Below, piece by piece: positions 13,335-31,769 of a stretch of 32,000 nt of DNA (positions within the stretch are counted from its first letter, which is position 1; the number at the start of each line of letters is the position of its first letter). A model generated the notes under the pieces. The model ran no database searches and was not told the origin of the DNA. It saw nothing but the letters and a program-made list of their open reading frames with translations. This DNA is from Flavobacteriaceae bacterium (GTDB lineage Bacteria > Bacteroidota > Bacteroidia > Flavobacteriales > Flavobacteriaceae), in assembly GCA_965224465.1 (NCBI GenBank), contig OZ245049.1, positions 3,060,001 to 3,092,000 of the forward strand, in the 5' to 3' direction. The position numbers were made by a program, and so were the translations under genes.

Positions 13335-13354
13335 TTTAAGAAGAAAAGATAATT

Positions 13355-14314: not shown

Positions 14315-14317
14315 ACG

Positions 14318-15493: not shown

Positions 15494-15504
15494 GAATAAA
15501 AATT

Positions 15505-15582
15505 AGGCGATTTAGCACTATACAGCGTTAATGTTCGAATTACTTTGTTAAATAGGAAACCCAATTTCTCGCTAAATCGCCT
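15505..15582. repeat. Perfect 12-bp inverted repeat with 54-nt spacer followed by a T-run (terminator-like)
   Basis: aggcgatttagc (15505-15516) pairs with gctaaatcgcct (15571-15582), followed by tttttc. Lies between convergent genes. Confidence 0.4.
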
Positions 15583-15802
15583 TTTTTCTTACCAACAAAG
15601 AACTAAATAATATCAAATACATCTCCAAGTGATTGTTTAGAAATGGAATTGGTATAAGTACATGAGTTCCTTGTTTCTGCGTTACAATATGATATTTTTT
15701 TTAATAAAAACCTGAGAACCTTTGTTTTATTTTGTTTTTTTGGTGGTATTCTTTCCGTAACCTTGTCAAATGTTATTTTTAATCGGTTTTTTGAGAATCA
15801 AT

Positions 15803-16396: not shown

Positions 16397-16589
16397 AATT
16401 AAAGCGATGTTTACAGATGAGCAAAATTACTGATATTATGTAGAACTAGTCTAAATAATTAAATTCATTTTAGACAGTCGGGAAGCACATCGCTTTTGTA
16501 AAAACCAATGTTTATTTGTGTATCGGGTGCGTACCTAATCAAAAAGAGACTGCTGGCATAAGAACTACAAATCAGGAACTAACAGAAAT

Positions 16590-16670
16590 AGAATAGCTAG
16601 CACAGGTCAATACATAAACTATTAATATTGGATATTTTGGATTGTAATTGGTATTACTTAATTTAGAGTA
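16590..16670 (+). repeat. R1 interspersed repeat, copy d (5' part degenerate)
   Basis: ...gctagcacaggtcaatacataaactattaatattggatattttggattgtaattggtattactta aligns with the 3' two-thirds of R1. Confidence 0.6.
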
Positions 16671-16723
16671 AGTATCTTTGAATGATGTTTAGTGATAACT
16701 TAAAAAAAATAGAGGCTTGAAAC

Positions 16724-17863
16724 TTGCTGCTATTCTTACTACTAGGCGTTTTACGTAACGTATATCAACTAAATTTCCAACCATCCGTGAAAAAAAGAAT
16801 AATAGGAATTGATGTGGCAAGAGCTTTTGCAGTTATCGGAATGATAATTGTAAATTTTAAAGTTGTATTTGGAGGAAATGGACAGCATTGGGTACAATCA
16901 TTTGCAGGTGTTTTTGAAGGGAAAGCAGCAGCAACATTTGTAGTTTTAGCGGGAGTAGGTCTTGCGCTAATGACAAACACTGCAATTAAAAATAATGACC
17001 AAGCCAAATTAAGAATTGCTCGGAATAGGATTCTAAAAAGGGCATTGTTTTTATTTGTTATAGGAATTTCTTATATAGCAATTTGGCCAGCGGATATCTT
17101 GCATTTCTATGGGGTTTATATGGCAATTGTAATCTTGCTCTTAACCAGTAAGGAAAAAACTATTGTAATTTCAGCTATTTCTCTTATTGTATTCTTTCCA
17201 ATACTAATGACTTTTTGGAATTACGAAACAGGATGGAATTTTGAAACATTAGACTATCAAGATTTTTGGACAATCAAAGGTTTTATAAAGAATCTATTTT
17301 TTAATGGTTTTCACCCAGTAATTCCTTGGGCTTCCTTTATGTTATTTGGTTATTGGTATGGTAAACAAGATTTACATAACGTCAAATTCGTAAAAAAGAT
17401 TTTTTGGATTAGTTCAATCATTTTTATTTCTATTCAAGCATTGTCTTTTATTTCTATCTTATTTTTATCAGAAGGAAACCCAGAAGTTGCAAAGGAATTA
17501 AACGAAATTATTGGAACCAATCCAATGCCACCATTGCCTATTTATATGATAAATGGAATTGCAGTAGCATTTTCAATAATATCAGCATGTATAATAATTG
17601 CCAAACGATTTGAGAATAGTTTTATAATTGACGCTTTAAATAAAACGGGTCAATTGGCATTAACCTTCTATGTAGCCCACGTAATTATTGGAATGGGAAT
17701 AATTGATACAATAGACCCAAATAAAATGGGGAACTATTCAATTGAATTCTCGGTAATATACGCTTTAGTATTTAGTGTGTGTTGTATAATATTTGCAGTG
17801 ATTTGGAGGAAATACAAAAAATCGGGACCTTTAGAATGGATAATGCGAAAAATCACGGATTAA
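16724..17863 (+). CDS. DUF418/DUF1624-type membrane protein (YeiB / heparan-alpha-glucosaminide N-acetyltransferase-like)
   Basis: KRIIGIDVARAFAVIGMIIVNF N-terminal motif, ~10 TM helices, C-terminal GPLEWIMRKIT motif typical of DUF418. TTG start, so the exact N-terminus is uncertain. Confidence 0.75.
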   Translation: MLLFLLLGVLRNVYQLNFQPSVKKRIIGIDVARAFAVIGMIIVNFKVVFGGNGQHWVQSFAGVFEGKAAATFVVLAGVGLALMTNTAIKNNDQAKLRIARNRILKRALFLFVIGISYIAIWPADILHFYGVYMAIVILLLTSKEKTIVISAISLIVFFPILMTFWNYETGWNFETLDYQDFWTIKGFIKNLFFNGFHPVIPWASFMLFGYWYGKQDLHNVKFVKKIFWISSIIFISIQALSFISILFLSEGNPEVAKELNEIIGTNPMPPLPIYMINGIAVAFSIISACIIIAKRFENSFIIDALNKTGQLALTFYVAHVIIGMGIIDTIDPNKMGNYSIEFSVIYALVFSVCCIIFAVIWRKYKKSGPLEWIMRKITD

Positions 17864-18080
17864 GAATGTCGTTGCCTAATTGGCTGCCGAGTTTTATTTG
17901 CGCTATCGATTATGGTCAACTTGTGCCACTTTAAAAGATCAAGTTCAATTAAATTATTGCCCAATACACTTGCTCCGATGGACTTAAAAAAATCATCACG
18001 AAACATAAAAGAAGCAATCGTAATGAGAAAAATAAATAATTTTATGATTTGTTTAGGGGGAATATGGATGGATATCCTTT

Positions 18081-18344
18081 GCTATCGTTCTATTTTTTAA
18101 CAACGCTAGAACGTAAAACAACCTGTTTATATCGGTTATTTTGGATTTTAATTGGTGTTAGGTTATGCTTCTCCAAAAACCACAAAGATTTACACCAAGA
18201 CCATCGAGATAAACAATAAATAATTATTGGACCGCTTGAAAATTTAAAAAATTTGAATACTTTTAACAAAAAAACGACACATAACCCTAAACTATTATAG
18301 ACATAACGTCAATTTTTGGAAGTTTATGGATGATATACGGGTGT
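18081..18344 (+). repeat. R1-long: R1 core plus tyrosine-recombinase 3'-end remnant plus shared leader (cassette 1 left flank)
   Basis: R1 core 18081-18155. 18155-18223 then reads VLGYASPKTTKIYTKTIEINNK*, which is the ...LGHxSxKTTEIYTH... tail (including the catalytic Tyr) of a tyrosine recombinase. Stops lie immediately upstream, so there is no recombinase body. The shared block ends with gatatacgggtgt (18332-18344). Paralogous to 20252-20522. Confidence 0.8.
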
Positions 18345-18346
18345 AA

Positions 18347-19042
18347 TATGTTGCAAGACGAAAATTAGAATTAAATTATTTGGTAAAATTTTAAATAAGG
18401 AAATTGAGAAATTAAAAGATGGAGGTCGAATTGATGAAAACTTAATGCATAATCTTATTTTTCAACAGAGTAGTGATAACCCAGAACTTGGCGATTTATG
18501 GCTAATAATTGAAGATTTTATATATTTCAAAGGATTTTTTTAAAGAAAATTAGATAAAATTGAAATAGAAGGAGATTTGCTATTCAACAAAGAGTTCTCT
18601 ACAGAAGAACAAAGATTTCTCAACTCTTTGGGCGAAAAATGATTAACAAAACGACCAGGCATCTTAATTATTCCCTGACGAAGGAAAATGTATAATTATT
18701 AAATTTAAAGGACCTAACACAAATATTTCAGAACATTTAACGCAAATATATTTTTTTACAACTCTAATACGTAATTATACAAATGATAAATTCCAAGTAA
18801 CTACATTTTATGGCTATTTAATTTGAGAAAGTATGGAAGATAGAGACGTTAGAGGTCGATTTAGTAGGTTTGAACATTCTTATCATTTAGATTATTGGTT
18901 TCTACCATATGAAAATGTAAACAGTTTTGATAATCGATCAAATGGTTCAATTTACAAAGAAGTCTTAAAGTATAGTACAATATTAGAATGTGTTAAACTT
19001 AGAAATAGAATTTTCATTAATAAATTTGAAAACACAAAATAA
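18347..19042 (+). pseudogene. Decayed, internally deleted gene of the GHKL-ATPase/PD-(D/E)xK nuclease class (only a C-terminal nuclease-like region remains)
   Basis: Joining three frames gives LFGKILNKEIEKLKDGGRIDENLMHNLIFQQSSDNPELGDLWLIIEDFIYFKG / KLDKIEIEGDLLFNKEFSTEEQRFLNSLGEK / KRPGILIIPDEGKCIIIKFKGPNTNISEHLTQIYFF...FYGYLI / MEDRDVRG...RNRIFINKFENTK*. There are at least 4 frame disruptions (near 18541, 18640, 18676 and 18823). The motif order parallels the C-terminus of ORF 20544..22535. Confidence 0.6.
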
Positions 19043-19050: not shown

Positions 19051-19893
19051 ATGGAAAACCAACAAAATAAACTAATCGTATTCCAAGATAAAAATATTCG
19101 TAGAATTTGGCACGAAAACGAATGGTTTTATGCTGCTGTTGATGTTATAGAAGTCCTCACAGAAAGTTCTAAACCAAGAGATTATTGGTATCGAGTAAAA
19201 AAAAGAGCCTCTGAAGATGAAAAAATGGAGTTGTCGACAATTTGTCGACAACTGAAGGTTCAATCGAAAGATGGTAAAAAATATAATACTGATTGTTCTA
19301 ATACTGAAGGTGTTTTTAGAATAATACAATCAATTCCATCACCCAAAGCAGAACCATTTAAAAGATGGTTAGCAAAAGTAGGAAAAGAAAGGTTAGATGA
19401 AATAGAAAATCCTGAGTTGGCTCAAGAGAGAATGAAAGAACTCTATGAACAAAAAGGATATCCTAAAGATTGGATTGATAAACGATTGAGAGGAATTGCC
19501 ATTCGTCAAAACCTAACAGATGAATGGAAGCAAAGAGGGATAAAAGAACATAGTGATTATGCTATTTTAACTGCTGAAATATCAAAAGCCACTTTTGGAA
19601 TGACACCAAGCGAATACAAAGAATATAAAAATATACCTATAAAATCTAAAATCAATTTACGTGATAATATGGACGATTTAGAATTGATTTTTTCAATGTT
19701 AGGAGAACGTGTTACTACTGAAATATCAAAAAAAGAAAAACCGAACACCTTTTTAAAAAATAAAAAAGTAGCACAAAGAGGAGGGAAAGTTGCAGGAAAT
19801 GCATTAAAAGAAACTGAAAAGGAATTAGGAAGAAATGTTATAACAGACAAAAATAATTTAGATAGCGATAACCAATTAAAATTAGACGAATAG
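19051..19893 (+). CDS. Bro-N domain-containing protein (phage antirepressor-like)
   Basis: N-terminal Bro-N pattern (VFQDKNIRRIWHENEWFYAAVDVIEVL ... EGVFRIIQSIPSPKAEPFKRWLAKV). The C-terminal region (YAILTAEISKATFGMTPSEYKEYK) is common in Bro-N/KilA-type mobile-element proteins. Confidence 0.8.
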   Translation: MENQQNKLIVFQDKNIRRIWHENEWFYAAVDVIEVLTESSKPRDYWYRVKKRASEDEKMELSTICRQLKVQSKDGKKYNTDCSNTEGVFRIIQSIPSPKAEPFKRWLAKVGKERLDEIENPELAQERMKELYEQKGYPKDWIDKRLRGIAIRQNLTDEWKQRGIKEHSDYAILTAEISKATFGMTPSEYKEYKNIPIKSKINLRDNMDDLELIFSMLGERVTTEISKKEKPNTFLKNKKVAQRGGKVAGNALKETEKELGRNVITDKNNLDSDNQLKLDE

Positions 19894-20004: not shown

Positions 20005-20262
20005 TTGCCAATAACTAAACGTTCGTGCGGTGCGCGCCCAGTACGAACATCCTGTTGACTATACCGGCTCAAAAGATGATACTATGAGGTTGGCGCAATT
20101 AATTAAGAGGCTATCAACAAAGACCTTAATAGGTACCACCTATTTTTAGGTCATTTTCTCTCACGCTCTTTTGTGGGGATATCTTTTTACTGTTTTTAGA
20201 TACGGATAAGTGTTGGTCAGCAGTATTTTGGCATGCGTTTCCCCTTTCGTGGCTACGTTTGT
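20005..20262 (+). repeat. R2 conserved ~260-bp element, copy 1 (candidate structured RNA / cassette right flank)
   Basis: Aligns end to end with 23408-23672. GC-rich hairpin 20021-20028/20041-20048, long-range helix 20053-20058/20114-20119, and an identical hairpin gacct..taggt-acc-accta..aggtc (20122-20152) followed by a U-rich tract. Confidence 0.75.
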
Positions 20263-20522
20263 TTTTTAACAACGCTAGTACGTAAACCAACCTATTTATA
20301 TCGGTTATTTTGGATTGTAATTGGTGTTAGGTTATGCTTCTCCAAAAACCACAGAGATTTACACCAAGTCCATCGAAATTAACAATAAAAAGATTAAAGG
20401 ACCGCTTGAAAACTTAAAAAATTTGAATACTTTTAACAAAAAAACAAATAATCACTCATTCTACTCTAGCTATGTTAGAAATAACAGCTACTCTAAGAGT
20501 TCTATAGTCGATATACGGGTGT
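20252..20522 (+). repeat. R1-long: R1 core plus tyrosine-recombinase 3'-end remnant plus shared leader (cassette 2 left flank)
   Basis: R1 core 20252-20325. 20324-20443 reads VLGYASPKTTEIYTKSIEINNKKIKGPLENLKNLNTFNKK (recombinase C-terminal tail), preceded by an in-frame TAA. It ends with gatatacgggtgt (20510-20522), 22 nt before the GHKL gene ATG. Track ORF 20321..20572 is this remnant, not a gene. Confidence 0.8.
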
Positions 20523-20543
20523 TGCCAGTAATACCAAAACCAA

Positions 20544-22535
20544 ATGCAGAAAGAAGCGAAAATCACATCTAAAGGAATTAAAAAAGTTTTAAAGAACTAT
20601 AATCCTGCTTCTTCTTTTGCCGAATATATTTGGAATGGTTTTGACGCTAAGGCAACCAAAATTGAGATAAACTACGATTCGAACGAATTAGGTAGAATTG
20701 GCTTTATTCAAATTAGAGATAACGGTACAGGAATTGACCTTGAAAACTTGGCATACAAGTTTGATAATTTCTATGAATCCGAAAAGTCCATTCAAATTCA
20801 ATCACCAAAACATTCTTCAATTCTACACGGTAAAAACGGAGTTGGTAGACTTACATTTTTCACTTTTGCTAACGATGCTAAATGGACTACACTTTATGAA
20901 AATAAAGGGATTAAAGGAGGAACAATAAGTATCTCAGCAGAAAACTTAAAAGTTTATGACAACAATTTTGTAAACACAGATTCAAAATTTACTGGAACGA
21001 CTGTTTACTTCACCAACTTGCTTATTGGCCTAGATACATTTCAACAAGAATTGACAAACTATATAAAGAAAGAGTTTTGTTGGTTTTTAGAATTAAACAA
21101 AGAGTATTCAATTCTAATAAATGGAATACCACTAGATTACTCTGATTTAGTTGCAGATAGAGATTCTTTTGAATTAGAAAACAGCAACAGTTTTTTCAAA
21201 ATTAAATATGTCCAATGGACTGAATTATTAAATAAGGAACACTCTAAGTTTTATTTTCAAGATTCTAGTGGAAAAGAAATATATAAAAACTTCACTACAC
21301 TTAATAAAAAAGGAGATTATTACTATCACAGTATTTACATTGAAAGTGATTTCTTTTCACATTTTGATTTTACAAAAAATGAAGAAAGCAATCAAATAAG
21401 TTTGTTTGCTAAAGCAAAATCATCTGTAGAATACAAATACTTAATTAGTAAACTTAACGAATACTTAAAAACCAAACGAAAGCCCTACTTAAGGGCATAT
21501 GCTGAAAGGCTGGTAATGGATTATGAATTAGATGGTATAATACCAACTTATAATAACTCTTGGGAGCAGATTAGAAGTAAAGAGTTAAAAGATACTATTA
21601 TTGGATTATATGAAGTCCAACCTAAAATATTCTCTAATTTAAACCTTGAACAAAAAAAGATATTCGTTCAATTTATAGACTTACTACTTGACTCTAACGA
21701 AAGAGAAAATATTTTCAAAATAATAGAAGGTGTTACCAAACTCGAACCAGAAGAAAGAGAGGACTTATCAAATATTTTACACAAAACAAGTTTAAACAGA
21801 GTCATAGATACTATTAAATTGATTGAAGATAGATACAAAACATATTATCAATTAAAAGAACTTGTGTTTAATGAAGAACTAGGAGCCAAAGAAATTCCTC
21901 ATTTACAAGATTTAATAGAAAATCATTATTGGCTTTTCGGTGAAGAATACCATTTGGTTACAGCTGCTGAACCAAAATTTGAAGAAGCATTAAAAAGATA
22001 TATTTATAAAACAACAGGTGAAATTAAAGACCAAAAAATAAACCATATCGACAAAAACAGAGAAATGGATATTTTTGCTTGCAGACAACATCAAAAAGAC
22101 GCAAAAATTGAGAATATCGTTCTTGAATTAAAACATCCTAAAATCCAACTAGGCGAAAAAGAGTACTCACAAGTAATGAAATATCTAAGTGTTATAAGTT
22201 CAAGACAAGAATTTAACGCACCAAATATGTCTTGGAAATTTTATCTCATAGGCAATAAATTTAATACTAGTCAATTTATTGAGAGACAGATTAAGACAAA
22301 CAAAAACCACGGAGAAGAGTCTTTAGTATACAATGATGAAGGTAGAATTAAGGTTTACGTTAAAACTTGGAGCGAAATATTTACTGAGTTTGAATTAAGA
22401 CATAATTTCCTTGATGAAAAATTAAAATTGGAAAGAGAGAAACTTTATGAATTAAGCAAAGACGCTGACGAAATTGTAGAAAAGGCATTAAATAACACAG
22501 CTATTAGCAAACCTGAAATTGTCGTTCCAAAATAG
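20544..22535 (+). CDS. GHKL (HATPase_c_3/MORC-like) ATPase fused to a C-terminal PD-(D/E)xK, Shedu/DUF4263-like nuclease domain
   Basis: N-box EYIWNGFDAKATKIEI, G1 IRDNGTGID, G2 HGKNGVGRLTFF. C-terminus: NHYWLFGEEYHLV ... REMDIFACRQ ... IVLELKHPK ... QVMKY (a D ... ExK arrangement). No signal peptide. Confidence 0.75.
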   Translation: MQKEAKITSKGIKKVLKNYNPASSFAEYIWNGFDAKATKIEINYDSNELGRIGFIQIRDNGTGIDLENLAYKFDNFYESEKSIQIQSPKHSSILHGKNGVGRLTFFTFANDAKWTTLYENKGIKGGTISISAENLKVYDNNFVNTDSKFTGTTVYFTNLLIGLDTFQQELTNYIKKEFCWFLELNKEYSILINGIPLDYSDLVADRDSFELENSNSFFKIKYVQWTELLNKEHSKFYFQDSSGKEIYKNFTTLNKKGDYYYHSIYIESDFFSHFDFTKNEESNQISLFAKAKSSVEYKYLISKLNEYLKTKRKPYLRAYAERLVMDYELDGIIPTYNNSWEQIRSKELKDTIIGLYEVQPKIFSNLNLEQKKIFVQFIDLLLDSNERENIFKIIEGVTKLEPEEREDLSNILHKTSLNRVIDTIKLIEDRYKTYYQLKELVFNEELGAKEIPHLQDLIENHYWLFGEEYHLVTAAEPKFEEALKRYIYKTTGEIKDQKINHIDKNREMDIFACRQHQKDAKIENIVLELKHPKIQLGEKEYSQVMKYLSVISSRQEFNAPNMSWKFYLIGNKFNTSQFIERQIKTNKNHGEESLVYNDEGRIKVYVKTWSEIFTEFELRHNFLDEKLKLEREKLYELSKDADEIVEKALNNTAISKPEIVVPK

Positions 22536-22565
22536 AAAGTTTTGTCCATCTTCCAATAGTATTCA

Positions 22566-23396
22566 ATGACCGAAAACAAATACACCAAAGAAACAGACAA
22601 AATTGTAAGTGATTTAATCACTAATCGGATTTTAAGACATACAATTCAGTTTTTCAAAAAAGGAGAGAAACGACTTGAACCATTTGGCTCAGGTGTTTTT
22701 GCGAAAATACATAATGACTATTTTATTTTAACTGCATCACACGTAGCAGATTTTTTTGAAAAAAATCCTAAAGAAGACTTACTAATTCGTGTAAATAAAA
22801 AATCTTATATCAATGTTCTTGGAGATATAAAGTATACTGATATTAAAAAAAGTAAGGGTGTCGATTTAGCTTATATCAAGGTTGACAAACAAATGATTGA
22901 GCCTTTATGCAACCCCTACATTCCTTTAGAAATAGATAAAATAAGAAGTCATCACAATGTATTTCACGCAATGAATTATTGTGTTTTGGGCTATCCTGAA
23001 ACGAATATCACTAAAGATGATGAGCCTTTAGATACTGGAGCGTCTTTTTATTTAACGAGCGCGAGTAAATATAATAGGTATCAAAAATATGGATATGATA
23101 AAAAAGACTATATCATAGTCGATATGCAAGGGAAAGGAAAAGATGTGAAAACGAATAAAAAATCAAAAATAAACACTCACTTTTATGGAATAAGTGGTTG
23201 CGGACTTTGGCTTTTGCTCATCTACAAAAATCCAATTACCGGCAAAGAAGAAATTGATTACCGATTAGTCGGAATAATGTCCGAATTTAAAAACTCAAAA
23301 TATTTTTGTTTAATAGCTAATAAAATTAAACTTTTGATTGAGGCTTTAAAAGTTATCGAAAAACATAAATTTAAAGAAATAAAAATAGAGTATTGA
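22566..23396 (+). CDS. Cytoplasmic trypsin-fold (S1-like) serine protease
   Basis: Catalytic triad in canonical order: His in FILTASHVADF, Asp in GVDLAYIKVD, Ser in YGISGCGLW. No signal peptide. Lies 30 nt downstream of the GHKL gene on the same strand. Confidence 0.75.
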   Translation: MTENKYTKETDKIVSDLITNRILRHTIQFFKKGEKRLEPFGSGVFAKIHNDYFILTASHVADFFEKNPKEDLLIRVNKKSYINVLGDIKYTDIKKSKGVDLAYIKVDKQMIEPLCNPYIPLEIDKIRSHHNVFHAMNYCVLGYPETNITKDDEPLDTGASFYLTSASKYNRYQKYGYDKKDYIIVDMQGKGKDVKTNKKSKINTHFYGISGCGLWLLLIYKNPITGKEEIDYRLVGIMSEFKNSKYFCLIANKIKLLIEALKVIEKHKFKEIKIEY

Positions 23397-23407: not shown

Positions 23408-23672
23408 TGGCAATAACTAAGTGTTCGTGCGGTGCGTAGCACCCAGCATGAACATCCTGTTGACTATACCGGCTCAAAAGATGATACTATGGGGATTGCG
23501 CGAAGTTTATTAAGAGGCTATCGACAAAGACCTTAATAGGTACCACCTATTTTTAGGTCATTTTCTCTCACGCTCTTTTGTGGGGATAGTTTTTTACTGT
23601 TTTTTGATACTGATTATTGTTGGTTAGTAGCGTTTAGGCATGCGTTTTCCATTACGTGGCTACGTTTATTTT
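23408..23672 (+). repeat. R2 conserved ~260-bp element, copy 2
   Basis: Starts 12 nt after the protease stop. Same helices as copy 1 (23423-23430/23446-23453 and 23458-23463/23521-23526). The substitutions relative to copy 1 preserve pairing through G-U wobbles on the + strand. Confidence 0.75.
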
Positions 23673-23775
23673 TTTTGTTCGGTTATTAGTACATGCTTTT
23701 ATTCGTTGCAACCAATAGGCAGGAGGTCCTCTTCCGTTAAGCAGATAGACTGTTTTGAGTTTCCCTGTCTTACAA

Positions 23776-23829
23776 TTGTTCTATTTTTTAACAACGCTAG
23801 AACGTAAAACAACCTATTTATATCGGTTA
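23776..23829 (+). repeat. R1 interspersed repeat, copy g (3'-truncated)
   Basis: ttgttctattttttaacaacgctagaacgtaaaacaacctatttatatcggttat, after which similarity stops. It marks the boundary to the PAAR locus. Confidence 0.7.
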
Positions 23830-24096
23830 TAAGATAAAGGTCAAATCGGTACGGTAATTAGATGAATAAAAATACAGGGAAATATAATCTGAAAACCACT
23901 ACTGCGTATAACTATTTTTTGTACTTTTGATTACTGCTTATAGATATATACGTCTTAATAATTAAAATAACCCAATGCTACATCGTAGGTTAAATGGATA
24001 TGCCTTCTTGTTTAGCACTGCTACTGTGAGAATATGGGATTATAAGTAATTTAACACACTCAAGCGGTAGAACATAACATAAAAAACAAATAAATT

Positions 24097-24558
24097 ATGC
24101 CAGGACCAGCAGCAACAATATCGCACATGCACACATGCCCTATGTATAGTGGGACAAGCCCACATACTGGCGGCCCCATTATAGGCCCGGGAGTGCCAAC
24201 AGTTTTAATAGGAGGAAAACCTGCCGCAGTAATGGGGGATCAATGTACCTGTTCGGGACCACCCGATGTAATTGTAGAAGGTGTTTCTACCGTATTAATT
24301 GGTGGGAGACCTGCAGCTACTATGGGATCAAAAACAGGTCATGGAGGCGAAGTAAGCATTGGAAATCCTACCGTACTTATTGGTACAAGATGTAGTGCTC
24401 CTACCGCAATAATGCCTTTGAGTCAAATACCTTTTCCTAAAATCACTCTAATTAATAGAATATTAGGGAATACAAGGCAAGCGCAAGAAAACCAAGAAAA
24501 AATAAAAGAAGAAGCTAAGAAAAATGGATATCTAAGCCTTGTTGATTTTAGTATTTAA
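24097..24558 (+). CDS. PAAR domain-containing protein (contractile-injection spike tip)
   Basis: Repeated PAAR blocks: PTVLIGGKPAAVMGD, STVLIGGRPAATMGS, PTVLIG. Cys/His-rich N-terminus (HMHTCPM, CTCSGPPD). Confidence 0.9.
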   Translation: MPGPAATISHMHTCPMYSGTSPHTGGPIIGPGVPTVLIGGKPAAVMGDQCTCSGPPDVIVEGVSTVLIGGRPAATMGSKTGHGGEVSIGNPTVLIGTRCSAPTAIMPLSQIPFPKITLINRILGNTRQAQENQEKIKEEAKKNGYLSLVDFSI

Positions 24559-24569
24559 TTATAAATGTT

Positions 24570-25640
24570 ATGAAAGTAGAGTACCCATTATTACCTTCTG
24601 ATAAAAAAGATGCTGAAGAATTTACTAAAGAAGAACTTATTTCTAAATATTATGGGCAAAAAAATCGCTTTGGTTTTTTTCCTATAGGACGTTTAAACTC
24701 TTGGCATGGAGGGATTCATATAGAAAGTTCAAGTAGTAAAGTTAGAGCTGTTGCAGATGGAAGAATAATAGCTTATAGAATTACAGAGGATCTTTTGACT
24801 GAAAAAGAAAGGGATAAAAAGTACTCTAACAGTTTTATTCTAATACAGCACAATTTTGAAACTCCTAAAAAACAAAAGTTGCGTTTTTATAGTTTGTATA
24901 TGCATTTACAAACTAAAAATCAATTAGAAAGTGGGTCTGGAAAACATATCCCAAATTTATATGCTAAATATATTGCAAAAGTAACAGGAAAACAGCAACG
25001 AGGTGGACTTAATGCAAGATCTGGTTCTGAAACATATGTTAGCAGTAGTAAAAAATGGGGGAAAATAAAAATGGTTATTTATAAAGACGAAATTGTTAGT
25101 TATGATATATCCCCTATAACTGGAGAAAAAGGGGAAAAGATAATGGGAGCTTCTTTTGCAGATGACCATTGGATTAATGACCATGATTATAAATATATCC
25201 CAATTATATATAAAGGACATAGCGATTTATTTATAGCAAGTTCAGGAACTAGAGTTAAAAATAAAGGTGATGGATGTGTGCAAATAGCCACAGCTGAAGA
25301 CTTCGATAAAAATGACATAAAAGGAGCTATTGTAAGAAATAAACCCAGTACAGGAAGTCGTACCTATGTTCGAACTATTAAAAAAGGAACTAATTTAGGG
25401 CTAGTTGAAATAGTCAATAGTGAATGGGTTAAGTTAAAAGGGAAAGAAGAATATATTCAGAAAAAAGCCCTTAAAATTTCTAAAAAACTAGGCGATCAAT
25501 TTGTGTATAATAAAACAAGTGACACAGCTAATTTAAATAAAGTGCAAAACGTTGATATGCCTATAAAAGCGGGAGATATAATAGGTGTTCCAAGTAAATT
25601 TGAATTGAAAAGCAAGAGCAATATAGTACGGTTCATTTAG
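24570..25640 (+). CDS. Polymorphic effector, N-terminal segment (M23/LytM-like peptidase first half); frameshifted relative to the next segment
   Basis: NSWHGGIHIES...VRAVADGRIIAY and RFYSLYMHL resemble the first two M23 blocks. PIKAGDIIGVPS resembles the pre-HxH block. No signal peptide. Ends at a TAG inside the overlap with the next open frame. Confidence 0.6.
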   Translation: MKVEYPLLPSDKKDAEEFTKEELISKYYGQKNRFGFFPIGRLNSWHGGIHIESSSSKVRAVADGRIIAYRITEDLLTEKERDKKYSNSFILIQHNFETPKKQKLRFYSLYMHLQTKNQLESGSGKHIPNLYAKYIAKVTGKQQRGGLNARSGSETYVSSSKKWGKIKMVIYKDEIVSYDISPITGEKGEKIMGASFADDHWINDHDYKYIPIIYKGHSDLFIASSGTRVKNKGDGCVQIATAEDFDKNDIKGAIVRNKPSTGSRTYVRTIKKGTNLGLVEIVNSEWVKLKGKEEYIQKKALKISKKLGDQFVYNKTSDTANLNKVQNVDMPIKAGDIIGVPSKFELKSKSNIVRFI

Positions 25641-27640
25641 AGGTTTTTACAGACGATGCCGAAGTAGAAAATTTTATAAATAATAATAAGAAAGATGATG
25701 ATCGTAAAACATATGATGTAGCAAGCGGAAAAACATTAAAAAAGGCTAAGCCAAGTAACAATTTAAAATTAGGAAATAAAATAAAAATTAAACAACGTAA
25801 AGGTAATTATGTTGAAATAGGATTTGGAAAAATAATTGCTATTATTGAAAAGAAAAATCTAAAAGGGTACAAAAATCATAAAGGTTACCCGATAAAACTT
25901 GACGTTTTTGATGACGTTAATGTACTGTATCATGGGTATTTAAAAAAGAATAGTTTATTAAAATGGATAACAGATCAAACTTATGTTAAAAAAGTTGACA
26001 ATAAGTTTGTAACATGCCCTAAAAATGAAGAACCAGGTGATAATTATCCATACAGAAGGTTGTCATTTAATGTTGAAGGAAGTAGTTTATGGGTTGATTC
26101 ATTTGTGTTGCCAGCAGAAACAGCCAATGAAAAAGATGATTGGGTAGCATTAACCCAAGATGTAACTCAAGTATATGAAAAAGAACCAAAAGAAACCGAT
26201 AATGATATTGTGACTACAGAAGCGTTTTCTGTACGAAAAGTAACAGCTACTAAGGATAAAGATGGTATAGAATGGTTACAAGTAAAAGGTAAAAGAAAAC
26301 ATAAAGATAAACAAGGTTGGATAAAATTAAGTGAACTAACAGAGATAAACCCATATGAATGGAAAGGTGATACGTATGGATGGCAAATCCTTAATGATAC
26401 CGGATCACAATACTTTTATCAATTTGGAGATTCTGTAGAAAATACCGAGCCTCATAATTTTGTTACTACATTATGGGAGCAATTAAAGCAATACGATAGC
26501 GATAATGATAAAGTGTTAAGCGTATATGAGTTACAAAAAGCAAGAAGTTCAGAAGCAGGAGCTAAAATACTAAGTAAATTTATATGTAAGCATTTTAGTG
26601 AGTGGGATACTAATAGCAAAATAAGAGATTTTAAAACTGAGGTAGAAAATATTTATAAAAAAGGAATAGAGCAAGAAACAGTTAAAGCTGAGATAACAGC
26701 TTTAGAAGAGGCAAGAGATAATAAAATAGCACTCTTAGAAGATAAAATTAATAACCTTTGTTTTTGGGATAAAATCCAAACAGGAGATCTTGTACCTACC
26801 AGTAAACGTAAACAAGATTATATTGACAAACATAAACCTGTGCGTACAAGTATGTTACCGAAAGGCACAAGTAAAGAAGAGATTCGTTTAGCAAAAGAGT
26901 TTGATGACTTAGAGAAAGAAAGAACTCCGAGAGAGTTTCCTGCTGATTCTAATGTGTATCACTTCCACCCTATTGCATTTGTGGAACAGATGAAGATGAT
27001 ATGTGCTGCTACTACACCGCCTTGGATGGAGGTGGCTTTAGCAGAAGCTAAAAAAGCTAAGTTTATTAGAGAAACTTTGAGTCCAACATCTGAAATGGCT
27101 AATAAATACCATACTTATGTAGGGATACCTAAAGCTACTGGTTCTACAGCTTGGTGTGCCTCTTTTGTTAATTGGTGTTTAAACGAATCTGGTCAAAAAA
27201 GTGTAAAATCAGCGGGTTCACAAAGTATACTTTGGAATGAAGGAAAACTATTTAAGCGTATTAATGAACCGGTATATGGTTGTATTGTTTTATTAACTAA
27301 TTATGTTAAAAGTAATGGTAAACAAACTTCTAATGGACACGTTACTTTTTTATACGGAATTGATTCTAACGATAATTTAATATGCTTAGGAGGAAATCAA
27401 CGTGATACAATAAAGTTTTCTAGATATAAAAAAAAAGGAGTTTTAGCTACTTTTCGACAGTATCAAAAATCAGAAGGAGGTAAAGTTTTTGTGGAGCAAA
27501 AATTTAATGGCTTCTTTTTACCAATTGATTATTCTCCTACAAATAGTAAACAACCAGATGTTGTAAATATGAAAAAATTAAATAATGAACTGGCTGGTAA
27601 AGCTGTGAAATCTGATGGGGAAAATGAAAAAACTACTTAG
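25604..27640 (+). CDS. Polymorphic effector, C-terminal segment: end of the M23-like domain, EF-hand-like loop, and a TIGR02594/NlpC-P60-superfamily peptidoglycan amidase-like domain
   Basis: The frame is open from 25604, but the first canonical start is TTG at 26060. STVHLEVFTDD continues the M23-like domain. DSDNDKVLSVYE (26495-26530) fits an EF-hand loop. C-terminus: PPWMEVALAE...STAWCASFVNWCL...NGHVTFLYG...LGGNQRDTI, which is the TIGR02594 pattern. Confidence 0.7.
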   Translation: MEKQEQYSTVHLEVFTDDAEVENFINNNKKDDDRKTYDVASGKTLKKAKPSNNLKLGNKIKIKQRKGNYVEIGFGKIIAIIEKKNLKGYKNHKGYPIKLDVFDDVNVLYHGYLKKNSLLKWITDQTYVKKVDNKFVTCPKNEEPGDNYPYRRLSFNVEGSSLWVDSFVLPAETANEKDDWVALTQDVTQVYEKEPKETDNDIVTTEAFSVRKVTATKDKDGIEWLQVKGKRKHKDKQGWIKLSELTEINPYEWKGDTYGWQILNDTGSQYFYQFGDSVENTEPHNFVTTLWEQLKQYDSDNDKVLSVYELQKARSSEAGAKILSKFICKHFSEWDTNSKIRDFKTEVENIYKKGIEQETVKAEITALEEARDNKIALLEDKINNLCFWDKIQTGDLVPTSKRKQDYIDKHKPVRTSMLPKGTSKEEIRLAKEFDDLEKERTPREFPADSNVYHFHPIAFVEQMKMICAATTPPWMEVALAEAKKAKFIRETLSPTSEMANKYHTYVGIPKATGSTAWCASFVNWCLNESGQKSVKSAGSQSILWNEGKLFKRINEPVYGCIVLLTNYVKSNGKQTSNGHVTFLYGIDSNDNLICLGGNQRDTIKFSRYKKKGVLATFRQYQKSEGGKVFVEQKFNGFFLPIDYSPTNSKQPDVVNMKKLNNELAGKAVKSDGENEKTT

Positions 27641-28073
27641 TATACTGGTACTACTTTTTGGAATGTCTACTTGTAAGAAAGTTTCTAAAATCAATCCTGC
27701 AAAAGTAATAGTAGTTAACGAACAGCTTGAAAAGATAGTTTCGGAAAAAGAACAAACTATTGAATATTTTTTAAAACAATTACAAATTGCAGTTGAAAAA
27801 AAAGATATTGATAACATAGAAAATAAAATAATATTTCCGCTAAAGTTTAGTAGTGGTGGAGAATCTATTTTTTACAATAACTATCAAGAGATTAAAGAAG
27901 ATGGAAGCAATGAAGAATTTTCAAAAATACTAGAAGCAAAATTTATAGGAATTGAGGATGGATTTTATATGATAGAATATCAAGATCCACAAAGTATAGA
28001 TTATTTTATTACTTTTTATTTTATTAAAAGTATTGATGGTTTTAAATTAAAGAGTTTTTCAGAACCTTATTAA
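27615..28073 (+). CDS. Lipoprotein, candidate cognate immunity protein 1
   Basis: Signal peptide plus lipobox (LLFGMSTC). Overlaps the effector 3' end by 26 nt. Small periplasm-facing protein immediately after a cell-wall-targeting toxin domain. Confidence 0.6.
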   Translation: MGKMKKLLSILVLLFGMSTCKKVSKINPAKVIVVNEQLEKIVSEKEQTIEYFLKQLQIAVEKKDIDNIENKIIFPLKFSSGGESIFYNNYQEIKEDGSNEEFSKILEAKFIGIEDGFYMIEYQDPQSIDYFITFYFIKSIDGFKLKSFSEPY

Positions 28074-28117
28074 AAAAACTAAACGGTGAATTAATTAAAA
28101 ATATTGAAGATGCTTTT

Positions 28118-28399
28118 GTGGGAGCTGTAATAGTTTTCTCGCATTCCCATGTAGCTTTTATTGCTGGACAATCTAAAGACAAAAAAAGTTTAATTTATTT
28201 AGGAGGTAACCAATCAGATGGAGCTACAAATGATGGACCGGGAAAAAGAACAATTTGTACAAATCCAAAATCTAAATCAGGTTTTAATACAAAGTTTTGG
28301 TTAGTAAAACCAAAAAATTATCCTTTAAATTCAAATAAAGAATTACCTATAATATCTTCAGATGGAAAAGAATTAGGTTATAAAGAAACACATAACTAA
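28118..28399 (+). pseudogene. Orphan 3' fragment of a second TIGR02594-like toxin domain (lacks the Cys-bearing N-terminal half)
   Basis: GAVIVFSHSHVAFIAG...LIYLGGNQSD aligns with GCIVLL...NGHVTFLYG...LICLGGNQRD of the main effector. No WCA-type nucleophile block and no pre-toxin junction upstream. Confidence 0.6.
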
Positions 28400-28401
28400 T
28401 T

Positions 28402-29040
28402 ATGAAAACATATAATAATATTAGATTACTATTAATTGCAATAATTTTCTTAACAATTATTTCTTGTAAGAATAATAAAGAAACCCCTAAAAACAATCAT
28501 GTTTCAATATATTTAAAAACAAAAACGGAAGCAAAAAAACAAGACAGTACAAAAAAACAAATATTTGATGACAAAGAATTAAAAAATATTTTAAAACAAC
28601 AATTAGCGAAGGGTAAATCTGCTTTGTATGATGATTCTTTTGATGTTGTGACCTATAAATATAGTCAGAAGGATTTAGATGTCATTCTACCTTTTTTGAA
28701 GGAAAATCTAATCGGTTATGATGTTCCTTCAAATATAAAGTTTAAAAAAATAATCAAACAGATATTTGGTAGAACTGTTGATTTTGCAAGTAATTCAAAT
28801 TATTTATATGTGAATTTTAATAATAAATTAGATAGAGCTAAAAAGTTTTATAGAAATGATAATTCAATTCAAATAAACCCTTTCGCTATATTTATTATTA
28901 AAAAGGGTAATTTTATAACACCTCTTTATTCTGTAGCAGAGATTTTAAATTACAAAAATATATATCCAGAAATATCTAAATTTGAAAATAAAGTTAAAAT
29001 CAATCAAAAAAATAAAAATGGTGAATCAATAAAGGGCTGA
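28402..29040 (+). CDS. Lipoprotein, candidate immunity protein 2, 3' end interrupted by IS30
   Basis: Signal peptide plus lipobox (LTIISC). Starts 2 nt after the orphan fragment. Its stop codon TGA (29038-29040) is at the IS terminal inverted repeat. Confidence 0.55.
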   Translation: MKTYNNIRLLLIAIIFLTIISCKNNKETPKNNHVSIYLKTKTEAKKQDSTKKQIFDDKELKNILKQQLAKGKSALYDDSFDVVTYKYSQKDLDVILPFLKENLIGYDVPSNIKFKKIIKQIFGRTVDFASNSNYLYVNFNNKLDRAKKFYRNDNSIQINPFAIFIIKKGNFITPLYSVAEILNYKNIYPEISKFENKVKINQKNKNGESIKG

Positions 29041-30160
29041 ATTCAACTTATAAACGCAACTTTTTGGTTAAACAATAATTGATTCATTACAAATATAGGG
29101 TTTTGATATGAAAACCTTTTCCTAGGCCTTCTATTTAATTTTCCTTCCACCTGTTTTATCATCTGCTTAGTTAATATCGAAAAGTCACTTCCTTTAGGGA
29201 AATATTGCCGAATAAGCCCATTTAAATTTTCATTAGATCCTCTTTCCCATGAATGGTAAGGATGTGCAAAATAATAATCGATTCCTAAAAATTCAGCTAC
29301 TTTTTTATGTCCTGCAAACTCTTTTCCGTTATCAGCTGTTATAGTGTTTATATACGGTATCCAATCTTCTAAAAGCTCATTAATAGCAGCTGTTACAACA
29401 GAAGATTCTTTAGATGCTATTTTTTTCATCTTTAGCATCCCAGAAGCCCTGTCATTGATTGTAAGAATGGCTTGATGATGATTTTTTCCAATTATTAAAT
29501 CCACTTCTAAATCTCCAAAACGTTCTCTTTTCTCCACTATATCTGGTCGTTTTTCAATACTAATTCGATCTTTAATAATACCACGTGAGTCCTTGAATGC
29601 CCCTCGTTTCCTGTACTTCCTTCCTTGTCTTCTTAAATGAGTATAGAGTGTGCCTTTATGCTTCTTATCTTGCCAGATATGCTGATAAATACGTTCTACT
29701 GAAACAACTTCTTTTCCTTGCTTAGTAAGTATTCCAACCACTTGTTCTGGACTATAATCATCACGTAACAGCTTTTCAACCTCGCTTCTTATCTTCTCAG
29801 TAAACCTAATGTGCTTTCGCTTTTTCTTATGTCTATCCTTCCACTTTCTATGTGCTAATTCGTATTCATAGGAGCCGCTACGAGCATCGCAATTACGTTT
29901 GCATTCTCTACTTATAGTGCTTTTATGTTTCCCTATAGCCAAGGCTATTTTGGACTTAGAATACCCCTGTGATAACATACAGGTAATTGTGTATCTTTGT
30001 TCTTTGGTTAAATGTGCCATACTACTTCTTTTTCAGAGACTTGAGGGCGTAAGGTAACTATTCCATCAAAACATGAAGGAGAGGTGACTCTCTTTCTGTT
30101 TTGAAAAATAAACCTTAGAAACTCTCAAATCTAAGAAGTTGCATTTACTACTTGAATTTA
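29038..30160 (-). mobile_element. IS30-family insertion sequence (~1.12 kb)
   Basis: Terminal inverted repeats: aattcaacttataaacgcaactt (29040-29062) against the reverse complement of aagttgcatttactacttgaatt (30136-30158), about 19/23 matches. A single transposase ORF lies inside. The exact ends and the target-site duplication are not resolved. Confidence 0.8.
29043..30020 (-). CDS. IS30 family transposase
   Basis: N-terminal HTH (GYSKSKIALAIGKHKSTISRECKRN). DDE region (LEVDLIIG ... ITADNGKEF ... HSWERGSNENLNGLIRQYFPK). Confidence 0.95.
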   Translation of the reverse strand: MAHLTKEQRYTITCMLSQGYSKSKIALAIGKHKSTISRECKRNCDARSGSYEYELAHRKWKDRHKKKRKHIRFTEKIRSEVEKLLRDDYSPEQVVGILTKQGKEVVSVERIYQHIWQDKKHKGTLYTHLRRQGRKYRKRGAFKDSRGIIKDRISIEKRPDIVEKRERFGDLEVDLIIGKNHHQAILTINDRASGMLKMKKIASKESSVVTAAINELLEDWIPYINTITADNGKEFAGHKKVAEFLGIDYYFAHPYHSWERGSNENLNGLIRQYFPKGSDFSILTKQMIKQVEGKLNRRPRKRFSYQNPIFVMNQLLFNQKVAFIS

Positions 30161-30161
30161 A

Positions 30162-30371
30162 GAGGTATTTAAATGGAGTGAAGACAAAGAAAATAATATT
30201 TCAAATAATTTAAAAACATTTGTAGCTAGAAATAAATATCTTTTTAATAACGATAAAAGCCAATTAGATTGGCTACTAAAAAACGACGAAGAGTTTATGG
30301 AAGCGTTGATAAGGGTTTATAATTATTCTAAAGACCAAAAACATAAAGATTGGTATGCTAAAAGAAATTAA
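30162..30371 (+). pseudogene. Displaced 3' end of the IS-interrupted immunity gene (probable)
   Basis: 69-codon open frame with no start codon beginning right at the IS end: EVFKWSEDKENNISNNLKTFVARNKYLFNNDKSQLDWLLKNDEEFMEALIRVYNYSKDQKHKDWYAKRN*. Frame continuity across the IS could not be reconstructed exactly. Confidence 0.4.
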
Positions 30372-30466
30372 ATACAAATACGAACACATTGATAAACATA
30401 AATATGGACACATCAGTATGCCTCCTAAAGGATTGAGTTAAAAGACAATTTTCAACTAATTCTAAT

Positions 30467-31090
30467 GTGTATCATTTTCACCCGATTGCATTTGTGGAAC
30501 AGATGAAGTTGATTGCTGGGGAACTTGATATTAAATCTGGTATTGAGTGGTTAGACTCTATTGCTATAAATCAGGAAAAAGCAGGGGTAAAATCTAATTA
30601 TAAGGTTTTATATGTTCAAGAAGGGCCTAAATTGAGAACGTCAGATTCAGATGAAGCCTTAAAATATTCCGATTGTTCAGAATTAGTCTGTAGATTTTTA
30701 AATAAAATAGGGTGGAGTAAAAAAGTTAAACACTTAAACACTTCTGCTTTGTATTCATTTGCGCAGAAAAACCCAAATTTATTAGAAAAACATGACAAAG
30801 ATTATGTTCCTCAAAAAGGAGGTATTTTTCTTTGGGCTAACAAAGCAGGTTCAAATGGTCATACGGGAATTGTTGTAGATTATGACAGTAAAATTGATGT
30901 TGTAACTACAATTGAAGCTATTAATTTTAAAGAAAGACCTTATGGTGCTACAAGTAGTATCAAATTACAAGGAGTTGTTAAAGCTAAGTGGAAAAGAAAA
31001 TCAAGTCACTTAATGAGTCATCCATTAATAACTACTAGATATGAAGCACACCCTTGTAGATTCTATTCTCCTAAAAAATCAGATAAATAA
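30467..31090 (+). CDS. Orphan toxin module: NlpC/P60- or CHAP-like cysteine peptidase domain preceded by the conserved pre-toxin junction
   Basis: Begins NVYHFHPIAFVEQMK, which is 47/50 nt identical to 26946-26995 of the main effector. Nucleophile-like YSDCSELVCRFL and GSNGHTGIVVDY. No N-terminal delivery region. A degenerate, stop-containing homology block (30388-30445) lies upstream. Confidence 0.65.
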   Translation: MYHFHPIAFVEQMKLIAGELDIKSGIEWLDSIAINQEKAGVKSNYKVLYVQEGPKLRTSDSDEALKYSDCSELVCRFLNKIGWSKKVKHLNTSALYSFAQKNPNLLEKHDKDYVPQKGGIFLWANKAGSNGHTGIVVDYDSKIDVVTTIEAINFKERPYGATSSIKLQGVVKAKWKRKSSHLMSHPLITTRYEAHPCRFYSPKKSDK

Positions 31091-31100
31091 TATTTACACT

Positions 31101-31769
31101 ATGAAAAAAACAAATTATTATATCTTATTAGGATTGATATTTTTATTAATATGTTGTAAAAATAAGGTTCCTAAAAGTGATTTATTGGGTAGTGAAAATA
31201 CTAATCATTTAATTGAAGAAAATGACCGCAAAGCAGACAGTTCATTAATTTTAGAAAAAGCTATAAATTTTGATGAGATTTATAATATTCTTTTAAATTC
31301 ATACCAAAAAAGAAATAACAAATTAGTTAAAAAGCTAGATAATAATTATTTGGAAAAATTAATTATAAAAAATAAAATTTCAAAAATTAATATAGATAAG
31401 TACGTGCAAATCAATTTCTTCTTAACTTTTTTAGATCAAAATAAAGATTACGGCGAATCATTATATGATGTTTTACCAATTAATGAGTTTGAGCCATCAA
31501 AGGATGCATATAAATATGTTGAAAGACCTTTTAATTATTTAGAAAATAATATAGAAGAAATAATAGAGAAAGTTGATTTAAAAAAAAATGATCCATTATG
31601 GGTTAAATATTACCTAAGTGAAGAAGGAATAAATAATATGCTTACGTTCTATGACAAGCAAATTAATTTTAAAAAATACTCTACTCTACTTAATCTTCTG
31701 AAGAAAGAACCTTTATTAATCCAATTCGAAAATACAGAACGAATAATTAAAGAAATAAGCGAAAAATAA
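31101..31769 (+). CDS. Lipoprotein, candidate immunity protein 3
   Basis: MKKTNYYILLGLIFLLICC lipobox. I prefer the ATG at 31101 to the track start at 31041, which overlaps the toxin module. Directly follows the orphan toxin. Confidence 0.6.
   Translation: MKKTNYYILLGLIFLLICCKNKVPKSDLLGSENTNHLIEENDRKADSSLILEKAINFDEIYNILLNSYQKRNNKLVKKLDNNYLEKLIIKNKISKINIDKYVQINFFLTFLDQNKDYGESLYDVLPINEFEPSKDAYKYVERPFNYLENNIEEIIEKVDLKKNDPLWVKYYLSEEGINNMLTFYDKQINFKKYSTLLNLLKKEPLLIQFENTERIIKEISEK

Follow-up and report, generated by a model that had tools for sequence, protein, structure and literature searches.

A PAAR-led polymorphic toxin locus with a TseP-like cell-wall effector and orphan toxin modules in a Flavobacteriaceae bacterium

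Genes of the toxin locus

A stretch of 32,000 nucleotides (nt) from a Flavobacteriaceae bacterium, here referred to in its entirety as the window, carries a polymorphic toxin locus at positions 24097-31769. The locus is a series of seven elements on the plus strand, namely, a gene for a PAAR protein, a gene for a large effector, a lipoprotein gene (lipoprotein 1), the remnant of a second toxin gene of the TIGR02594 type, a second lipoprotein gene (lipoprotein 2), an orphan toxin module with a CHAP domain, and a third lipoprotein gene (lipoprotein 3). This is the gene order given in a first-pass annotation made from the sequence alone, and all seven elements were found in place in the list of open reading frames (ORFs). 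On an ORF map covering 22 to 32 kb, plus-strand ORFs run throughout the locus, save for the minus-strand ORF of an IS30 transposase (29043-30020; 325 amino acids [aa]). The domain architecture, synteny, homology stub, and decay of the locus, as reported here, can be read directly from the sequence. The locus probably represents an accessory effector island belonging to a type VI secretion system of the Bacteroidota kind (T6SS-iii). It appears to work like a polymorphic toxin locus of the Rhs/CdiA type, and its effector is, as judged by sequence, a distant member of the TseP family.

Table 1. Features of the toxin locus (positions in the window)
Feature	Position	Strand	Basis
PAAR spike-tip protein, 153 aa	24097-24558	+	PF05488 (PAAR_motif), E 4.8e-21
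TseP-like effector gene, 1023 aa once repaired	24570-27640	+	Reading frames; end-to-end homologues
N-terminal catalytic-like domain, split (aa ~30-130 and ~320-365) by SH3-like beta-rich inserts	24657-25665	+	hhalign; invariant columns
EF-hand-like segment (aa ~635-683), then KHxSEW motif	26471-26617	+	Subthreshold matches to EF-hand_7 (E 0.0093) and EF-hand_6 (E 0.051)
Junction motif YHFHPIAFVEQMK at the boundary of scaffold and toxin domain	26957-26995	+	Regex scan of all loci
C-terminal TIGR02594 toxin domain (NlpC/P60-CHAP clan)	27107-27448	+	NCBIfam TIGR02594; Pfam CHAP E 8.3e-5
Lipoprotein 1, 152 aa, candidate immunity protein	27615-28073	+	Signal ...LLFGMSTC; homologues after TIGR02594 effectors
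3' remnant of a second TIGR02594-type toxin	28082-28399	+	Homology; 93-aa ORF at 28118-28399
Lipoprotein 2, 5' part, 212 codons	28402-29037	+	Signal ...FLTIISC; ORF to 29040
IS30-family insertion sequence, ~1.12 kb	~29038-30160	-	NF033563 transpos_IS30 E 2.4e-87, 293 bits; HTH_38, rve
Lipoprotein 2, 3' part, 69 codons + stop, displaced by the insertion sequence	30162-30371	+	Continuation after the insertion sequence
Orphan toxin module with CHAP/Amidase_5 domain	30443-31090	+	71-nt stub, then Pfam domain; ORF 30467-31090, 207 aa
Lipoprotein 3, 222 aa from M at 31101 (MKKTNYYILLGLIFLLICC), likeliest start	31101-31769	+	Lipobox-like N terminus; annotated 242-aa form from 31041

The PAAR protein scored 75.2 bits against PF05488 (cutoff, 27) and has a C-terminal tail of about 55 aa that ends in ...KKNGYLSLVDFSI. 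With the T6SS_PAAR equivalog model NF033420, it reached 34.7 bits, which is far below the cutoff of 124, and we therefore regard it as a divergent subtype. Related loci were collected in a scan of GTDB representatives, with one genome per species and the genome of the window not among them, which gave 475 relatives, and 80 loci were kept, the best of which is 63% identical; the synteny counts given below refer to Bacteroidota-type loci with enough flanking sequence. In 49 of 51 Bacteroidota loci, the gene that directly precedes the effector gene encodes a homologous PAAR protein, and the full-length PAAR homologues are 41 to 69% identical to the PAAR protein of the window and in most cases precede the effector by 2 to 20 nt. 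Members from outside the Bacteroidota (Aeromonas, Pseudomonas, Polyangia, and others) lack a homologous PAAR.

The effector gene is broken into a first ORF at 24570-25640 and a second one, in another frame, that follows it at 26060-27640. The first frame (frame 0) ends with a stop at 25640, and frame 2, which reads ...YSTVHLEVFTDD... near the break, is open from 25604 to 27640 and preceded by a TGA at 25601-25603. The 1-nt frameshift lies between 25604 and 25640, the simplest site being the AAAA run at 25608-25611, and the addition of one A to this run yields a single protein of 1023 aa, in line with the size of about 1,020 aa proposed by the first-pass annotation for the repaired gene. The repaired protein aligns end to end with intact proteins of about 1,000 aa from Aquimarina, Tenacibaculum, and relatives, at up to 50 to 63% identity; the best among 491 homologues from a database search, a protein from Aquimarina longa, is 50% identical across 100% of the length. 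The effector N terminus (MKVEYPLLPSDKKDAEEF) is hydrophilic, and a signal peptide was not found in it, as had been noted before. Export of the effector by the Sec pathway or the type IX secretion system was considered and rejected, as the protein has neither a signal peptide nor a Por_Secre_tail domain. The locus of Aquimarina aquimarini Aq135 (L012, 10001-12954; 63% identical) is likewise led by PAAR without VgrG; its effector is encoded by ORFs of 541 and 402 aa with a break at about aa 540, and a lipoprotein 1 homologue follows.

The effector scaffold, its toxin tip, and the relation to TseP

The scaffold of the effector, about 800 aa in length, has no strong Pfam match, with SH3_3 being found weakly at aa 252-301. 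Within an alignment of 37 members, several residues were identified as invariant or nearly invariant. Those in the N-terminal domain form the motifs WH46GGIH50, H94, FYSLYMH112L (FYSLY and H112), and VH356LEVF (H356-L-E-V-F), and those further along are D643, E654, K-H675-x-S-E-W679, and, in the junction motif, H798-F-H800-P801, of which H798, H800, and P801 are nearly invariant. Among these 37 sequences, D643, E654, H675, E678, and W679 do not vary at all, and E358 is invariant or nearly so.

The N-terminal domain had been described as M23-like, and whether this holds depends on how strictly the term is applied. When its joined halves (aa 30-130 and 320-375) were compared by hhalign with bona fide M23 domains, which occur as C-terminal tips within the same effector family, the two aligned with a probability of 91% (E 9e-7) and with their motifs in register. 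The profile-profile alignment places H-x3-[DH], 'A-DG-V', 'Y-HL', 'KxGxxIG', and 'H-[LF]-E-[VI]' in the order found in M23/LytM peptidases (PF01551). The remote similarity thus stands, but the stricter tests fail. Pfam M23 (PF01551) gave no match on the effector even at an E value of 1, and both canonical motifs are altered, with HxxxD being replaced by HxxxH (WH46GGIH50) and HxH by xxH (TVH356, with a single His). Models of the full-length effector and of the 385-aa N-terminal domain generated with AF2 had pLDDT values of 76 to 77, and Foldseek searches of the Protein Data Bank (PDB) with both models retrieved nothing significant, the best M23-containing match being 3csq_D (E 3.3). Furthermore, the domain differs from M23 peptidases in being interrupted by an insert of about 200 aa, and the activity reported for its counterpart in TseP is that of an amidase and not an endopeptidase. 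Since the motifs are changed and neither Pfam nor Foldseek gives a significant match despite the hhalign result, we tentatively assign the domain, on these sequence comparisons, to a probable TseP-N-type variant of the LytM fold outside Peptidase_M23.

The C-terminal domain fared better, and its assignment to TIGR02594 (NlpC/P60-like) is confirmed. On aa 847-960, it scored 82.8 bits (E 2.6e-23) against a curated cutoff of 70.55, and the predicted catalytic pair is retained, with the Cys being located in STAWCASF and the His in NGHVTF. Foldseek against the PDB gave weak papain-like or CHAP matches only for this region, and a sequence search of the PDB returned nothing for the N-terminal ORF, the TIGR02594 domain, or the CHAP orphan. 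TIGR02594 effectors of the Stenotrophomonas T6SS have been predicted only.

The effector belongs to a family of 491 relatives in the database search, within which members from Flavobacteriia span 77 to 100% of the query. In those with about 80% coverage, the N-terminal part is shared and the C termini then differ. The family is polymorphic, with a conserved N-terminal portion of about 80% and a swappable cell-wall hydrolase domain, the tips being of the TIGR02594, CHAP, M23, GH19, GH24, GH73, GH104, pesticin-like, peptidoglycan-binding, and DUF5675 types, among others. Many members are named 'hypothetical', 'SH3 domain', or 'TIGR02594 family' in databases.

The nearest characterized relative is TseP of Aeromonas dhakensis. 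Together with its homologues AHA_1849 and PSPTO_5204, TseP has been described as a chimeric amidase-lysozyme T6SS effector (Wang et al., eLife 2025, PMC11893102). According to that work, TseP-N (aa 1-603), which superimposes on the M23 protein 3SLU, has conserved His residues, acts as a Zn-dependent amidase, contains a predicted EF-hand, and also plays a structural part in the assembly of the T6SS; the carrier is VgrG2, TseP-C is a lysozyme, and TsiP confers immunity (PMC11893102). The effector of the window matched the TseP-like Aeromonas protein P0102 by BLASTP in three collinear blocks (1-122, E 4e-21; 309-382, E 9e-5; and 559-679, E 3e-7), and Aeromonas proteins of 770 to 860 aa match the same blocks collinearly. 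The effector of the window and TseP share a collinear scaffold with the WHGGIH, FYSLYMHL, and HLEVF motifs, the EF-hand, and KHxSEW, followed by a WHF(H/S)P junction and a peptidoglycan hydrolase domain; both lack a signal peptide and have a known or candidate immunity gene downstream, and genetic linkage to a VgrG spike occurs in the family. The '(W/Y)HF(S/H)P' motif, which reads 'EVWHFSPIG' in P0102, coincides with the published boundary between TseP-N and TseP-C (aa 603/604). However, the effector of the window is only about 25 to 38% identical to TseP, in separate blocks, and its tip is a predicted TIGR02594 cysteine peptidase rather than a lysozyme. Furthermore, TseP binds VgrG2 directly and is a T6SS-i effector, whereas members from the Bacteroidota have a dedicated PAAR gene directly upstream, the effector of the window has no VgrG carrier gene beside it, and its family is linked to T6SS-iii. 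Arrays of orphan tips and a recombination stub with the junction motif have not been described for TseP.

The scaffold is also far more widely distributed than the survey of Gram-negative bacteria in the TseP paper suggests. The N-terminal WHGGIH...FYSLYMHL module is present in Minicystis and Polyangium (L058-L062, L067, and L081) and in Pseudomonas, Aeromonas, Stenotrophomonas, and Caballeronia (L071-L084). Copies from Myxococcota and many Pseudomonadota have no adjacent PAAR and often match the first 120 to 400 aa only.

Orphan modules, lipoproteins, and the delivery machine

The elements downstream of the effector gene had been interpreted as toxin fragments, each with a lipoprotein as cognate immunity protein, and this interpretation holds well for the first two modules. 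Homologues of lipoprotein 1 (27 to 47% identity; E down to 1.5e-35) directly follow TIGR02594-type effectors in eight loci (L002, L001, L007, L012, L013, L009, L019, and L023). The start of the lipoprotein 1 gene overlaps the 3' end of the effector gene by 26 nt (27615-27640), and overlapping immunity gene starts are also found in A. longa (L001, 12966-12982) and Tenacibaculum geojense (L002, 13023-13039), by 17 nt each, an arrangement that would be consistent with translational coupling.

The truncated second toxin is, as proposed, a 3' fragment. Its frame is open from 28049, and DNA homology begins at about 28082, just past the lipoprotein 1 stop codon. In the intact effector of 1004 aa from L017, a locus of a Saprospiraceae metagenome-assembled genome, the fragment has its counterpart in the final 105 aa (900-1004), at 75% identity, and it spans positions 80-115 only of the TIGR02594 profile. 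It has lost its homology stub, and since the junction motif and the half of the domain with the catalytic Cys are gone, we consider it dead. The lipoprotein 2 gene is cut by an insertion sequence, now identified as an IS30 element with imperfect terminal inverted repeats (TGAATTCAACTT... and the reverse complement of ...AAGTAGTAAATGCAACTTC) that match in about 20 of 25 bases, its ends being approximate. Removal of 29038-30161 restores a protein of 281 aa that is 55% identical over 273 aa to the product of the gene after the L017 effector, and the alignment crosses the insertion point with an irregularity of 2 aa only. This match across the junction therefore establishes both the pairing of toxin 2 with lipoprotein 2 and the interruption of the latter by IS30.

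The third module is a CHAP orphan without a delivery region, again as first described. It exceeds the cutoffs for both CHAP (E 6.5e-6; 27.0 bits versus 26) and Amidase_5 (E 1.1e-5; 25.8 bits versus 21) and has the motifs YSDCSELV, with the Cys, and NGHTGIV, with the His. It begins with a stub of 71 nt (30443-30513) that is 86% identical to 26930-27000 of the main effector gene and encodes the junction motif. The orphan toxin is 71% identical to an orphan of Olleya sediminilitoris (L010) and 89% identical to a toxin on the metagenome contig L085. The pairing of this module with lipoprotein 3 is weaker, as it comes from a single close contig and is contradicted by Olleya. The protein has two database relatives only, the one of 73% identity being encoded after the toxin on L085, which is probably a close relative and adds little independent weight. 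None of the three lipoproteins matched a Pfam or NCBIfam family.

More generally, 43 of the 66 motif-bearing toxin modules have a lipoprotein-like ORF after them at a distance of -90 to +300 nt, compared with a background of 13.8% for lipoprotein-like N termini among ORFs with 150 aa or more in the same loci, as called by a heuristic regular expression and not by a trained predictor. In a regular-expression scan, the junction motif headed short modules (with less than 300 aa of open frame upstream) in about 14 loci. Together with the 71-nt stub, this bears out the organization likened earlier to the orphan arrays of Rhs/CdiA systems. As in Rhs, CdiA, and MafB toxins, a conserved delivery region is followed by a junction motif (compare VENN and PxxxxDPxGL), a variable C-terminal toxin, and an immunity gene, and downstream orphan modules retain a short stub of homology. 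Unlike in these systems, the scaffold is an unrelated one with neither Rhs/YD nor FHA repeats, and all toxins are predicted cell-wall hydrolases that would act in the periplasm and be countered by lipoproteins, rather than nucleases or pore formers. The comparative data thus uphold the description of a PAAR-led polymorphic toxin locus with one full-length hydrolase effector and orphan modules.

No Hcp, VgrG, sheath, or baseplate gene was found in the window by Pfam analysis of all large ORFs and by tblastn with seven VgrGs, which also revealed no VgrG remnant upstream of PAAR. This confirms what had been reported, and the delivery machine had been left open between T6SS-iii and a particle resembling an extracellular contractile injection system (eCIS). 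The synteny of related loci narrows the choice to T6SS-iii. VgrG precedes PAAR in 25 of 44 loci, and 17 of the 44 are PAAR led without VgrG, as in the window. In the neighbourhoods of four homologues, the PAAR gene was immediately upstream of the effector gene in every one. The order in T. geojense is TssN, TssE, TssF, TssD, TssD, VgrG, PAAR, effector, and a small gene, followed downstream by several short M23/YkuD orphan modules with a small gene after each; in Cellulophaga baltica, it is TssN, TssK, TssO, ClpV, TssE, TssF, VgrG, PAAR, and effector. TssN, TssO, and the PF17642-type TssD are markers of T6SS-iii, and since they adjoin related loci, we assign the family to this machine. As in the T6SS-iii of Flavobacterium johnsoniae and the Bacteroidales, which have PAAR- and VgrG-linked effectors, related loci lie at the end of clusters of TssN, TssO, TssK, ClpV, TssE, TssF, and TssD; the window differs in holding no core gene.

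One contig, the apparent source of the window, has on record a protein that matches lipoprotein 3 at 100% identity. At least five VgrGs, in five distinct clusters (P0198-P0201 and P0228), are recorded on this apparent source contig too, the contig assignment being indirect, together with a second effector of the family, P0033 (about 1,047 aa, with a GH19-like tip), which shares 67.5% identity with the VgrG-PAAR-linked effector of L026. A T6SS in the source genome is thus likely, and the genome probably carries several spike/effector islands. A literature search yielded no description of this effector family for Flavobacteriaceae or T6SS-iii.

Proposed function, decay, and significance of the locus

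From homology and synteny, we infer how the locus could work, including its enzymatic activities, the contact between PAAR and effector, immunity, and recombination. PAAR would cap a VgrG spike encoded elsewhere in the genome, and its C-terminal tail most likely carries the adjacent effector of about 1,000 aa. The scaffold, with a variant M23-like and probably Zn-dependent amidase-type domain, SH3-like inserts, and an EF-hand, and ending at YHFHPIAFVEQMK, would be needed for loading and possibly for cutting peptidoglycan. Once fired by T6SS-iii into the periplasm of a neighbouring cell, the TIGR02594/NlpC-P60 tip would cleave peptidoglycan there, along with the amidase-like domain of the scaffold, while lipoprotein 1 would neutralize the tip in the periplasm of the producer. 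The downstream orphans may represent stored alternative tips with their immunity genes, and the 71-nt stub could serve as a substrate for homologous recombination by which tips are swapped.

Several findings weigh against a functional T6SS-iii effector island. T6SS structural genes are absent from the window, and what is recorded on the apparent source contig is limited to VgrGs and does not extend to sheath, baseplate, or TssN/O/P genes; moreover, the tie between the window and this contig is indirect. Neither Pfam nor Foldseek sees an M23 fold in the N-terminal domain. The Olleya toxin with 71% identity to the CHAP orphan (L010, 13957-15081) is followed by an unrelated lipoprotein of 175 aa, without detectable similarity to the 222 aa of lipoprotein 3, so that the immunity genes may turn over more quickly than the toxins, or else the immunity protein is one other than lipoprotein 3. 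Finally, the effector is frameshifted and may not be made at all, and the closest orthologue, that of A. aquimarini, is likewise split at another site, which suggests that VgrG-less copies of the locus decay recurrently.

These findings raise the question of whether the locus is a dead relic that serves defence only, with a pseudogene effector and with lipoproteins 1 and 3 acting as orphan immunity proteins against the toxins of relatives, which would resemble the acquired interbacterial defence gene clusters of Bacteroidales. In favour of this reading, the effector gene is frameshifted, toxin 2 has lost its 5' half, and immunity gene 2 is split by IS30; no VgrG is adjacent, the A. aquimarini orthologue is also split, and the other 25 or so genes of the window read intact, which argues against a generally error-prone assembly. 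However, the frameshift amounts to a single base in a homopolymer. The assembly, which may be based on long reads, could be in error at this point, or the mutation could be very recent or reversible. Neither PAAR nor either half of the effector has additional stops or signs of decay, every invariant residue is retained, and the full architecture for attack is still present. We regard the relic as a serious but less probable alternative to an effector island of T6SS-iii. In the island as we interpret it, PAAR, two lipoproteins, and the CHAP orphan ORF are still intact, and the current benefit may be mainly immunity. Another explanation of the split gene, that the two ORFs form a regulated pair read by programmed -1 ribosomal frameshifting, would fit the -1 change of frame at an A-rich run (GAA TTG AAA AGC). 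It is extremely improbable, given that a canonical X XXY YYZ slippery heptamer is absent, that all inspected homologues but one have a single continuous ORF, and that the exception, in A. aquimarini, breaks elsewhere, at about aa 540. It is also conceivable that an eCIS/Afp-like or other PAAR-using particle delivers the toxins, as PAAR-like spike tips occur in eCIS too and the window is without T6SS genes. We consider this very unlikely, since the genes for PAAR and the effector adjoin VgrG as well as TssN, TssO, and the PF17642-type TssD in related loci, since TseP, the nearest characterized relative, is delivered by a T6SS (PMC11893102), and since no eCIS sheath, tube, baseplate, or tail-fibre family was detected in the window or in any homologous neighbourhood inspected.

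Beyond this copy, we lean towards, without being confident of, a more general view in which the TseP-N scaffold is a widespread, dedicated carrier of polymorphic cell-wall toxins in Bacteroidota, Myxococcota, and Pseudomonadota, is loaded by tailed PAAR proteins in T6SS-iii lineages, and uses (Y/W)HFHPIAF as a recombination handle for silent orphan tips. If true, this would parallel, in functional terms, the switching of orphans in Rhs/CdiA systems, which has not yet been described for effectors of this class or for T6SS-iii. TseP, known from proteobacteria, is now tied to a large, unannotated family in marine Bacteroidota that we assign to T6SS-iii, and what had been taken for a single fusion event would be a modular polymorphic toxin system with a defined junction and orphan cassettes. 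A PAAR gene followed by a WHGGIH...HLEVF...HFHPIAF scaffold can serve as a rule for mining peptidoglycan hydrolase toxins and their candidate lipoprotein inhibitors, and the locus is a tractable case of the swapping and decay of an arsenal. The biological weight of the window copy is limited, as it is partly inactivated, and to a T6SS specialist, the locus would be a fine illustration of an already familiar type of system and no surprise.

The remaining large ORFs of the window encode ABC transporters, a TonB-dependent receptor, regulators, an efflux system, a Bro-N protein, and an HATPase_c_3 protein. Neither tRNA genes nor Rfam families were detected in the window, and matches to sigma-70 promoters were at background level in a scan that is ill suited to Bacteroidota. 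A family locus with PAAR, effector, and immunity genes in A. longa (L003, contig18, 156-18871) is located inside an apparent integrative conjugative element with genes for a NikA-like protein, a relaxase, TraG/T4CP, and a tyrosine integrase. Because of this location, it is possible that toxin islands of this kind may move horizontally.

Upstream of the toxin locus, a mosaic repeat with a 61-nt core (TTTTTTAACAACGCTAGAACGTAAAACAACCT.TTTATATCGGTTAT) is present in three copies, at 18079-18275, 20006-20445, and 23408-23674 plus 23770-23830. Its right half encodes the remnant of a tyrosine recombinase C terminus (...LGYASPKTTEIYTKS, ORF 20321-20572), and the copies bracket three cassettes, namely, the Bro-N gene, a pair of genes for the HATPase_c_3 protein and a 276-aa protein, and the PAAR toxin locus, which look like islands accreted in tandem at one attachment site. 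The Bro-N protein (19051-19893) matches PF02498 (E 1.1e-14) and the PADLOC candidate defence family PDC-S13 (E 2e-116). The pair at 20544-23396 consists of a 663-aa HATPase_c_3 (GHKL/MutL-like) protein, possibly with an HSDR_N/nuclease-like C-terminal part, and of the 276-aa protein, which has no family match and whose gene begins 30 nt further on. PADLOC gives one weak match for this pair (REase_II; E 3.9e-7), which is possibly a two-gene defence cassette.

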